A stretch of 64,000 bases of DNA from Escherichia coli. Lineage in GTDB: Bacteria > Pseudomonadota > Gammaproteobacteria > Enterobacterales > Enterobacteriaceae. The translations under genes and the position numbers were made by a program. Numbering within the stretch: position 1 is the first letter of the stretch; each line of letters begins with the position of its first letter. The DNA lies in the NCBI RefSeq assembly GCF_003991155.1, contig NZ_CP031295.1. The stretch is one strand, 5' to 3'. Of the stretch, positions 29,871 through 31,778 are shown piece by piece. Below the pieces are notes generated by a model, which ran no database searches, had not been told where the DNA came from, and was given only the letters and a program-made list of their open reading frames with translations.

Positions 29871-30812
29871 GAAACAATAAGGCTTAAAAGGAAATAACTT
29901 CCGTACCCGAAAGGAAGCCAGTCCACTGAATTATTTACCACAATAATACTGACGACTAAAAGGGAGGAGCAGAAAAATGAATGGATTCAGAAACAGTTCA
30001 CGGAACGGTCAGGTCTGGCGTTACCAGCGTGCCGGCGGGCGGGCCGTTATTCTGGAGGTCAGTGGACGCTGGATGGAAGCGGCAGAAGCATGGCGACGGG
30101 CTGCCTGCATAGCTCCCCGGACAGACTGGCAACAGTTTGCCCGGAAAAGGGCTGAACACTGCCACCGGCGCTGCCGGGGAAGGGTGTAACGAAAAAAGCA
30201 GCCTTCATTACTCCAGGAGTCAGAAGGCTGAAAGGAGTTTATGAGATTTGCTTTTTTTAATATCCGGTCGGGCAGTATGACCGGCCAGTTCTGAGTAGCA
30301 CAGAGTTTTTTCCGTATTAAGTCGCGATTTTATATTTTGTGATTAATTTCACAAAATAAGGTCTTATTCAATGTGTGCTGCGATATTCAGGGGGGCTGAA
30401 ATACAGGTGCCATTTATCTGATATGGAGAATAACATGAGGAAATATATTCCACTGGTATTATTTATCTTTTCATGGCCGGTATTGTCTGCAGATGTTCAC
30501 GGGCAGATTTATGCACCAGACAGAATGAATGTTAATTAGTTTATGAATACAACAGGGGCTGATCAGCAATCACCGGAACATCGTAGCTGACGCGTTCGCA
30601 ATGCTCAGTTGTCCCCCCCGGAAACGGGAAAAAGTAAGTTTTCCCCCGCTCCCGGCGTTTTTGTAACAAAAACAGGCAAATGGGGGTAATAGTCAGCAAC
30701 AGGGAATGTGGTATTATCGCGGCGGGTGTTTGAGCCTTTCTGGTTCAGGCAAGACGCAGGTACCAGAAATGCGAAGACCCCACTCGTTAATCCATTAACT
30801 CGTGAGGTCTGC

Positions 30813-31019
30813 ATGAAGTACCTTAACACTACTGATTGTAGCCTCTTCTTTGCTGAGAGGTCAAAGTTTATGACGAAATATGCCCTTATCGGGTTGCTCG
30901 CCGTGTGCGCCACGGTGTTGTGTTTTTCACTGATATTCAGGGAACGGTTATGTGAGCTGAATATTCACAGAGGAAATACAGTGGTGCAGGTAACTCTGGC
31001 CTACGAAGCACGGAAGTAA
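30813..31019 (+). CDS. srnB: Hok/Gef-family type I toxin reading frame (SrnB-like); toxin core 30870-31019 with overlapping leader ORF
   Basis: C-terminal ...LIGLLAVCATVLCFSLIFRERLCELNIHRGNTVVQVTLAYEARK matches Hok-family pattern (TM helix, LCEL, AYE). Confidence 0.7.
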   Translation: MKYLNTTDCSLFFAERSKFMTKYALIGLLAVCATVLCFSLIFRERLCELNIHRGNTVVQVTLAYEARK

Positions 31020-31302
31020 GCTGCCGGGCGGGGACGGAAGTCCCCGCTTTCCGGAAGTGTGAGGTATTTCAGGGGCAGACACCCTATATACCAGAAACAG
31101 CCGGTCCCGCCCGGGGCCGGCACCCTGGCTAAGGCATTTCCAGCTTTTCAGTCATTTCATTATCAAAATCACATTAAACGGTCGTAATCAGACATGATTT
31201 GTGCGCCAACACAGATCATCGTCACAACTTTCAAGTCGCTGATTTCAAAAAACTGTAGTATTCTCTGCGAAACGATCCCTGTTTGAGAATTGAGGAGGCG
31301 AG

Positions 31303-31560
31303 ATGTCGCAGACAGAAAATGCAGTGACTTCCTCATCAGGCACCAAGCGTACATACCGGAAAGGTAACCCTGTTCCGGCCAGAGAGAGGCAAAGAGCTTC
31401 TCTGGCTCGCAGAAGCAACACTCATAAGGCTTTTCATGCGGTTATTCAGGCCCGGTTAAAAGACAGGCTGAGTGAACTGGCGGATGAGGAAGGTATTACT
31501 CAGGCGCAGATGCTTGAAAAACTGATTGAATCAGAGCTGAAACGCAGAGCGACTTCGTAA
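31303..31560 (+). CDS. copB: CopB/RepA2 copy-number repressor of RepFIIA replicon
   Basis: 85 aa beginning [11 protein letters not shown] and ending ...[18 protein letters not shown], upstream of tap/repA1. Confidence 0.8.
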
Positions 31561-31694
31561 ATATTCACATTCTTGCTTATCTCAGGAGTGAGTGGTAGAT
31601 TGCTGATCGTTTAAGGAATTTTGTGGCTGGCCACGCCGTAAGGTGGCAGGGAACTGGTTCTGATGTGGATTTACAGGAGCCAGAAAAGCGAAAA

Positions 31695-31778
31695 CCCCGA
31701 TAATCTTCTTCAAGTTTGGCGACTAGAAAGATTACCGGGGCCCCATAAAACCGCATAGCCAACAATTCAGCTATGCGG
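31695..31778 (-). ncRNA. copA: Putative CopA antisense RNA / CopT target region (two stem-loops)
   Basis: Long imperfect inverted repeat 31695-31740 plus hairpin 31751-31778 just upstream of tap; strand and ends inferred from RepFIIA organisation. Confidence 0.35.

Follow-up and report, generated by a model that had tools for sequence, protein, structure and literature searches.

An srnB/srnC-type toxin-antitoxin locus of an IncF multidrug-resistance plasmid and its predicted antisense RNA

Introduction

Does a Hok-like frame of 49 codons on an Escherichia coli plasmid belong to a complete type I toxin-antitoxin module and, if so, where is its antisense RNA encoded and how is its leader read? 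These questions were raised by a locus in a 64,000-nt stretch of contig NZ_CP031295.1 (the window; all coordinates are counted from its first letter). An earlier note, made from the letters of the window, had recognized a Hok/SrnB-type locus and expected an antisense regulator, which it did not place.

Reviews list srnB/srnC as a homologue of hok/sok, with a consistent gene arrangement, killing and regulation (PMC4147584). In full-length hok mRNA, tac and fbi form a locking stem; 3' processing leads to tac/ucb and Shine-Dalgarno (SD)/dcb stems, translation and Sok binding (PMC9841398, PMC1635323). For srnB of plasmid F, papers cited by PMC4147584 and PMC1635323 are given as the source that 3' processing activates translation, that RNase III cuts the duplex and that plasmid-free segregants die. 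SrnB killing was delayed by SrnC expressed from its own promoter (PMC12390103).

Results

Toxin core and identity of the locus

The srnB toxin core was found at 30870-31019 on the plus strand. Its translation, MTKYALIGLLAVCATVLCFSLIFRERLCELNIHRGNTVVQVTLAYEARK, has 49 amino acids (aa), in the size range of the Hok/Gef family (~50 aa), and matched all 42 positions of the Pfam profile HOK_GEF (PF01848) with 37.3 bits (E = 2.1e-9), above the gathering score of 22. Scores with the NCBIfam subfamily models HokA (34.4 vs 89) and Hok (32.9 vs 73) were below the strict cut-offs, in keeping with a distinct branch. The protein was identical to SrnB of plasmid F (WP_001312851.1). The toxin assignment of the earlier note was therefore confirmed, and the span that it gave to the locus, 30700-31019, proved too short: the -35 hexamer of the mRNA promoter starts at 30690, and regulatory elements of the 3' untranslated region (UTR) reach ~31122, about 100 nt further 3'. 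A GAGAGG motif of the toxin core is located at 30855-30860, where it overlaps the -35 box of the antisense promoter described below. A search for a second Hok-family ORF across the 64-kb window found none, leaving srnB as the sole one.

The 551-bp region of the locus had matches in 3040 plasmid records and was present in 2072 of 5426 complete E. coli genomes, nearly always plasmid-borne. The exact allele (100%) was found in hundreds of Enterobacteriaceae plasmids. Since this region is recurrent and the toxin accession is shared with plasmid F, the 49-aa frame is not a chance ORF. Gene order, as read from an identical record, was traI, traX, finO, an ANR-family regulator, a nuclease fragment, srnB, and then copB/repA2, tap and repA of an IncFII replicon. 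Rfam matches in the window to AS-traI, AS-traG and CopA agreed with this order. This synteny (finO - srnB - copB/CopA/repA) puts the locus at the same site as in F, between finO and the RepFIC/FII replication-control genes.

Pairwise alignment with srnB/srnC of F (NC_002483, 2736-3191) gave ~97% nucleotide identity, from ~30695 to beyond 31200 of the window. The two loci have the same antisense promoter hexamers and spacing, the same in-frame 57-nt leader, the same fbi and the same site by the replication-control genes. They differ by ~15 substitutions, six of them in the 3' UTR; the others include a leader change, L13F (30849), a C to U change at mRNA position 7 (30730) and a base in an internal loop of SrnC (30785). 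The upstream flanks are unrelated, with an IS3-disrupted finO region in F versus finO, the ANR-family gene and the nuclease fragment in the window. The shared toxin accession, the ~97% identity and the common UniProt cluster with SRNB_ECOLI (see below) identify the locus as an allele of srnB/srnC. We are highly confident that it is an intact hok/sok-family type I toxin-antitoxin module, of the kind that acts in post-segregational killing on F-like plasmids.

The Rfam sok model describes the mRNA leader

A covariance-model search, which the earlier note had proposed for Sok/SrnC-like RNAs, identified the locus, with a match in the toxin-sense direction only, and did not map the antisense RNA. 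RF01794 ("sok antitoxin") matched the plus strand at 30724-30882 over its full length (1-157), scoring 90.2 bits (gathering score 59). A permissive Rfam scan of both strands returned no minus-strand family. RF01794 was on the toxin-sense strand in 9/9 intact family loci, its 3' boundary coincided exactly with the toxin ATG in flm and in the pnd-like loci, and its first helix corresponds to the tac/ucb stem, in which the mRNA 5' end pairs with the anti-SD box. These three properties show that RF01794 models the mRNA leader and not the antisense RNA; the match identifies the locus, reveals a structured leader of ~150 nt as in hok/sok-type systems, and anchors the mRNA 5' end at 30724.

If the Rfam label was taken literally, with its strong plus-strand match, the antitoxin would be a 159-nt plus-strand transcript (30724-30882). 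Such an RNA would be the 5' part of the toxin mRNA, hence not complementary to it, and strand logic refutes this reading. The end of the model on the toxin ATG and its first helix also speak against it, as do the strong promoter on the minus strand and the length of Sok, which is 64 nt and not 157 nt (PMC1635323). We assign virtually no probability to a plus-strand antitoxin and use RF01794 as a leader model.

The srnB mRNA and its structural elements

The predicted srnB mRNA promoter is located at 30690-30717 on the plus strand. It comprises a -35 box TAGTCA (30690-30695), a 16-nt spacer with a TGn motif and a -10 box TATTAT (30712-30717), giving 9/12 consensus positions plus an extended -10; homology with F begins at ~30695, within this promoter. 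The predicted start at 30724 is 7 nt after the TGnTATTAT box. The full-length mRNA is predicted to be ~400 nt long (30724-31122, plus strand), with the 5' end taken from the Rfam leader model and the 3' end placed after a terminal hairpin.

The mRNA begins with the tac element GGGUGUUUG (30724-30732), which would pair with fbi in the full-length RNA or with ucb in the processed RNA. In the full-length fold, the partner of the ucb element, or anti-SD box, AGACCCC (30775-30781), is the leader SD region; when the leader is folded alone, it is tac. The dcb element GCCUC (30841-30845), directly adjacent to the -10 box of SrnC, is the partner of the leader SD in the open form; the same relation between dcb, leader SD and antisense -10 box was reported for hok (PMC9841398).

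Downstream of the toxin, the minimum free energy (MFE) structure has a 10-bp post-stop hairpin, GGGCGGGGAC/GUCCCCGCUU (31026-31049). By analogy with hok, for which such a role is drawn from the literature (PMC1635323), it may act as a roadblock and so set the 3' end of the processed RNA. On thermodynamic grounds only, 18 bp in three stacks are predicted between a 3'-UTR element (31052-31070) and the start region of the leader ORF (30815-30834) when the RNA is full-length. This 3'-UTR element is followed by the fbi element CAGACACCC (31076-31084), complementary to the mRNA 5' end, and by a GC-rich hairpin, GCCGGUCCC/GGGGCCGGC (31100-31121; 9-bp helix in the MFE structure), with which the full-length mRNA presumably ends. 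This hairpin is a putative terminator by its position only, with no U-run after it. A further regulatory pairing through the 9-nt repeat TACCAGAAA (30761 and 31089) was rejected, because such a repeat is close to what chance would give, its conservation in F is partial, and its copies are in the wrong order for an extension of tac/fbi.

Predicted structural switch and co-variation of tac and fbi

Folding of 30724-31125 (402 nt) gave an MFE of -173.8 kcal/mol (z = -6.2), in which nt 1-9 paired with nt 353-361 as a 9-bp tac/fbi helix. The isolated leader (30724-30850) adopted the open form as its MFE structure, with -41.8 kcal/mol compared to -32.5 kcal/mol for the closed form. The open leader contained the tac/ucb stem, and its GAGG was paired with CCUC at 30842-30845. 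The loop of this SD/dcb hairpin is the predicted 9-nt target CCUUAACAC (30821-30829), an exact complement of the predicted SrnC 5' end. According to the partition function, the unpaired probability of the SrnC target region is predicted to rise from 0.08 in the full-length RNA to 0.53 without the 3' ~70 nt. Folding of the leader region, another check suggested beforehand, thus predicted both stems, tac/ucb and SD/dcb, and the loop complementary to SrnC.

For the tac/fbi pairing, nine family loci were compared. Their 5' ends were set by the Rfam model, and each 3' UTR was searched for the best duplex with its own first 12 nt. All nine intact loci, the window and eight others, had an fbi-like element 50-77 nt after the stop codon. 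The paired elements co-varied: GGGUGUCUG/CAGACACCC in srnB, GGGUGCUUG/CAAGCACCC in the MOBH-plasmid and Aeromonas loci, GGGUGCUU/AAGCACCC in Vibrio, GGGCGC/GCGCCC in pnd and GGCGCUU/AAGCGCC in flm, with changes at tac positions 4, 6 and 7 across the family. Shuffled sequences gave equally good duplexes in 0-4/300 cases in eight loci; the window value was 3/300. The shuffle control was weak for flm (21/300), where the known AAGCGCC element was recovered. For one further locus, the 5' end came from a sub-threshold Rfam match (52 bits) and no fbi was found; this locus was disregarded. The end pairing of hok/sok-type mRNAs, tac/fbi with the alternative tac/ucb, was thereby found in the window.

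At mRNA position 7 the window has U and F has C, which weakens the tac/fbi duplex in the window (-15.5 vs -18.6 kcal/mol). Both alternative helices survive, because the change gives a U.G wobble with fbi as well as with ucb.

The predicted SrnC antisense gene

The earlier note expected an antisense gene opposite the leader start, and a sigma-70 promoter at the right place was detected on the minus strand. The SrnC promoter (30835-30864) has a -35 box TTGACC (30864-30859), an 18-nt spacer and a -10 box TACAAT (30840-30835), matching 10/12 consensus positions. Hexamers, spacing and position were constant in 9/9 srnB-type loci, including decayed ones, with the end of the -10 box always 35 nt upstream of the toxin start codon. 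A scan for promoter consensus found two sites in the region, with 0.9 expected by chance, and is not statistically remarkable alone; because of this, the promoter call is based on position, conservation and homology. Transcription should start at ~G30829, 6-7 nt downstream of the -10 box, judging from the promoter sequence.

The predicted SrnC RNA is ~65 nt long (30765-30829, minus strand), as deduced from its fold and family homology, with ends uncertain by 2-3 nt. It would consist of a 15-16-nt single-stranded 5' tail, a stem-loop with the core stem GACCUCAC...GUGGGGUC (30809-30776) and a 3' tail UCUUCGCAUUUCU near 30765. This predicted tail and stem-loop resemble the published architecture of Sok, a 64-nt RNA with an 11-nt tail and a stem-loop (PMC1635323). 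The ~65-nt fold had -21.8 kcal/mol (z = -3.3), and a longer stretch of 78 nt had -31.5 kcal/mol (z = -4.9). SrnC is homologous to FlmB of F and to other antisense RNAs of the family, which fold alike.

Conservation of the stem was scored on a MAFFT alignment of the antisense RNAs, for the eight basal pairs, as indels had put the upper part of the stem and the loop out of register. Across 11 loci, 87.5% of the basal 8-bp stem was paired, compared to 34-62% when the partner was slid, and three pairs showed compensatory changes. The conserved U.G pairs of this stem are valid on the minus strand only. The co-variation is modest: its score was reached by 11/500 shuffles, and the same helix is possible on the sense strand.

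A simple terminator scan of the minus strand called no terminator; the SrnC hairpin was missed because its U-run is interrupted. For this reason, the 3' end near 30765 was placed by combining the hairpin prediction with homology to FlmB and the antisense RNAs of other family members. The lack of both an antisense promoter and a terminator structure had been named in advance as evidence against the module; promoter and hairpin were detected, the terminator scan was silent, and the U-tail is non-canonical. In silico, the window carries a putative antisense gene, with a candidate strong promoter and a predicted Sok-like RNA of the usual ~60-65 nt, 5' tail followed by stem-loop, that would be complementary to the leader SD (30804-30807) and ATG (30813).

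The leader ORF and its frame

The leader ORF (srnB', the mok analogue) was found at 30813-30869 on the plus strand. From its ATG, 19 codons (57 nt) lead in frame to the toxin start at 30870, and the frame stays open to 31019; a spacer of 5 nt separates the ATG from an SD sequence, GAGG (30804-30807), as read from the sequence. The earlier note compared this arrangement with the mok/hok overlap. The ATG, the GAGG and the open frame were confirmed, and the overlap in different frames was not: the leader is in the toxin frame, and translation from 30813 therefore gives an N-terminally extended form of 68 aa (30813-31019). Both the SD and the ATG are within the predicted SrnC footprint (30765-30829), as for a mok-like leader.

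The 68-aa ORF could itself be the true toxin gene; there would then be no mok-like leader or coupling, and SrnC would repress the toxin directly at its start site. A leader ATG in the toxin frame with a good SD occurs both in the window and in F, and databases carry the 68-aa form as SrnB or as a Hok family toxin. The F product is identical to UniProt SRNB_ECOLI ("Protein SrnB"), as revealed by exact-sequence look-up, and the window form, one residue away (leader L13F), is in the same 90% cluster. Judging from the reading frame, any ribosome that starts at 30813 in the window allele must make this 68-aa extended SrnB; the 49-aa core may also arise by internal initiation.

Comparison of the alleles points the other way. 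Besides the window and F, four srnB alleles had an in-frame leader. Two loci (L005, L006) have a 1-nt deletion that turns the leader into an out-of-frame peptide of 19 aa, MKYLALLIVASSLQRGQSL, the TGA of which overlaps the toxin ATG as ATGA. Exact copies of the L006 allele were found in 704 plasmid records, and those of the 76-nt leader allele of the window in 466. Since both configurations are common, the leader peptide and its fusion to the toxin are not conserved, which argues against the 68-aa protein as the obligatory toxin; the existence of the shorter allele means that the amino-acid sequence of the leader and the fusion are dispensable. SD, ATG and RNA elements were kept among the alleles, and the peptide sequence and the fusion varied. 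Furthermore, the Pfam domain spans the 49-aa core only (residues 23-64 of the 68-aa form), other toxins of the family have ~50 aa, and RefSeq annotates the 49-aa CDS. We therefore regard a 68-aa toxin gene as rather unlikely. The allele comparison fits a mok-like leader, for which translation would matter and the peptide sequence would not.

Decayed alleles

Two loci at the same position (L008, L009) have decayed. Their mRNA promoter and tac have been lost or replaced, with an IS66-family element upstream, and fbi is unchanged. A 2-nt deletion frameshifts the toxin to 44 aa, and L009 has in addition an 8-nt deletion in the leader. The Rfam leader match is lost in L008. Both loci keep an antisense promoter of 11/12 consensus positions and an intact hairpin. 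As a test of tac/fbi co-variation, these alleles were uninformative and were set aside, given the replaced promoter and tac, the unchanged fbi and the frameshifted toxin.

Such alleles, together with the weakened tac/fbi pair (U.G) of the window, raise the question of whether the window locus, too, is an inactive relic of the sort found at many chromosomal hok loci, kept by hitch-hiking with finO and the replicon on either side. However, the window retains the full set in intact form: two promoters, the RNA elements tac, ucb, dcb and fbi, the SD, the leader, the toxin and the hairpins. The U.G change preserves both alternative helices, the toxin is identical to the experimentally toxic SrnB of F, and the exact 551-bp allele is carried by hundreds of plasmids. 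A relic is thus very improbable, and we treat the locus as an intact srnB/srnC allele.

Discussion

Comparison with related systems

The overall architecture of the window locus is shared by hok/sok of R1 and flm of F (L016, 10808-11250). Their leaders contain tac, ucb, dcb and a leader ORF with its SD, their antisense RNAs consist of a 5' tail and a stem-loop and cover the start of the leader ORF, and downstream of the stop codon come an fbi at ~56 nt and then a terminal hairpin. The toxins have diverged from SrnB, and hok/flm-type toxins were absent from the tblastn matches, which went down to 41.5% identity (E <= 1e-3). The leader ORF of flm/hok (mok/flmC) overlaps the toxin in the +2 frame, whereas the window leader is in frame, and the antisense promoter hexamers differ. 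The tac/fbi pair of hok/flm also differs in sequence from that of the window, with complementarity kept.

The closest sampled non-srnB toxin with the full element set was that of the pndA/pndB-type loci on IncI/K plasmids (L011, L012), with 47.7% identity. The leader model matches these loci as well; their antisense hairpin has a GGGGCUUUC tail, and their fbi follows the stop codon by 50 nt. Unlike in the window, their leader ORF is out of frame and has 67 codons. Their tac reads GGGCGC, compared to GGGUGU in the window, and they are found on a different backbone, near trbA.

Proposed mechanism

From the anatomy of the locus and the published hok/srnB mechanism (PMC9841398, PMC4147584, PMC1635323), we propose the following course of events. 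The weak plus-strand promoter would give a stable mRNA of ~400 nt (30724 to ~31122). In this full-length form, tac (30724-30732) would be clamped to fbi (31076-31084), and the leader initiation region would be buried, inaccessible to ribosomes and antisense RNA alike. Slow 3' trimming would remove fbi. The 5' end would then refold onto ucb (30775-30781), which would expose the leader SD and ATG (30804-30815) and the loop 30821-30829.

The strong minus-strand promoter (TTGACC-18-TACAAT, 30864-30835) would provide a constant supply of short-lived SrnC of ~65 nt. Its single-stranded 5' tail may dock on loop 30821-30829, after which the leader SD and ATG would be covered. Binding would block translation of the leader, hence of the toxin, and mark the duplex for RNase III. 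Upon loss of the plasmid, SrnC would decay first, the processed mRNA would be translated, and the membrane toxin would kill the cell.

Significance

The window locus is a textbook srnB/srnC at its usual site on an IncF multidrug-resistance plasmid and is already known. There is nothing new in this copy; it is an ordinary module, present in thousands of plasmids. If undocumented, the two leader configurations might serve as a natural experiment, in which leader translation would matter and neither the peptide nor termination-reinitiation would; the window allele would kill with the 68-aa toxin and the other allele with the 49-aa core. Separately, the decayed alleles that have lost the mRNA promoter and kept an undamaged SrnC gene might be anti-addiction modules against incoming srnB plasmids. 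These ideas are speculative, and we consider their chances to be small.

RefSeq records contain the 49-aa CDS only, with no antisense RNA annotated. Given this gap and the strand of the Rfam "sok" model, automated pipelines will miss SrnC or assign it to the wrong strand. The predicted coordinates (SrnC from 30829 to 30765 on the minus strand, mRNA from 30724 to ~31122) are transferable to the hundreds of plasmids with the same allele. For its own plasmid, the locus would account for part of the stable inheritance.

Strand of the RF01794 match

The Rfam family RF01794, labelled 'sok antitoxin', matched the toxin-sense strand, both in the window (30724-30882, +) and in the Hok-family loci L002, L005 and L010-L016. 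In the pnd loci and in the hok-type flm locus, the match ended at the toxin ATG. What RF01794 models is the mRNA leader, and therefore any annotation that adopts its strand unquestioned puts the antitoxin in the wrong place.

Sequence features of the srnB mRNA

At mRNA position 7 (window 30730), the window has a T, whereas plasmid F, which carries its own srnB/srnC allele, has a C. The T gives a U.G wobble in the helices formed by the mRNA 5' end (tac, 30724-30732) with both the 3'-UTR element (fbi, 31076-31084) and the anti-Shine-Dalgarno box (ucb, 30775-30781). The tac/fbi duplex energy was -15.5 kcal/mol for the window, versus -18.6 kcal/mol for F. As judged from these predicted helices, the substitution is structure-preserving.

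In the 3'-UTR, two 14-nt arms (31024-31037 and 31101-31114) were 86% complementary. An alternative conformation is possible, in which the post-stop hairpin (31026-31049) would pair with the terminal hairpin (31100-31121) and neither would fold on its own. The 9-nt sequence TACCAGAAA occurs twice as an exact direct repeat: at 30761-30769, where it is the 3' arm of the hairpin in the 5' leader, and at 31089-31097, directly after fbi. Such a repeat is near chance expectation, and F differs at the second site, where it carries GCCAGAAA. A terminator-like hairpin with a T-run (CGCCGTGTGCGCCACGGTG TTGTGTTTTT; 30899-30927, +) lies inside the toxin coding region and is kept in F; chance alone would give about one such site in the region that was scanned.

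Genomic neighbourhood

Upstream, Rfam AS-pc02 ('antisense to pHK01_099') was matched over its full length at 30086-30271 (-, 181.9 bits), and this match overlaps the ORF of a 70-aa ANR-family regulator (29977-30189, +). It is followed by an N-terminal fragment of a thermonuclease-family gene (~30436-30539, +), which contains the signal-peptide-like MRKYIPLVLFIFSWPVLSADVHG and which an identical RefSeq record lists as a pseudogene. Downstream are the IncFII replication-control genes copB/repA2 (31303-31560) and CopA RNA (31686-31774, -), and past these a multidrug-resistance region with tet(A) and several IS elements (~33600-56000).

Variation and decay among srnB alleles

The srnB alleles differ in the frame of their leader (window 30813-30872 versus L005 422-481 and L006 411-470). 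A form with an in-frame 68-aa leader-toxin fusion was found exactly in 466 plasmid records, and a form with an out-of-frame 19-aa leader, with an ATGA stop/start overlap, in 704.

Two further srnB alleles, L008 (330-790) and L009 (330-780), are decayed. In both, an IS66-family element lies upstream, the mRNA promoter and 5' end have been replaced, and the toxin is 44 aa long after a frameshift; L009 additionally has an 8-nt deletion in the leader. Because both still have an antisense promoter with an 11/12 consensus match and an intact hairpin of SrnC, the predicted antisense RNA, they may be antitoxin-only relics.
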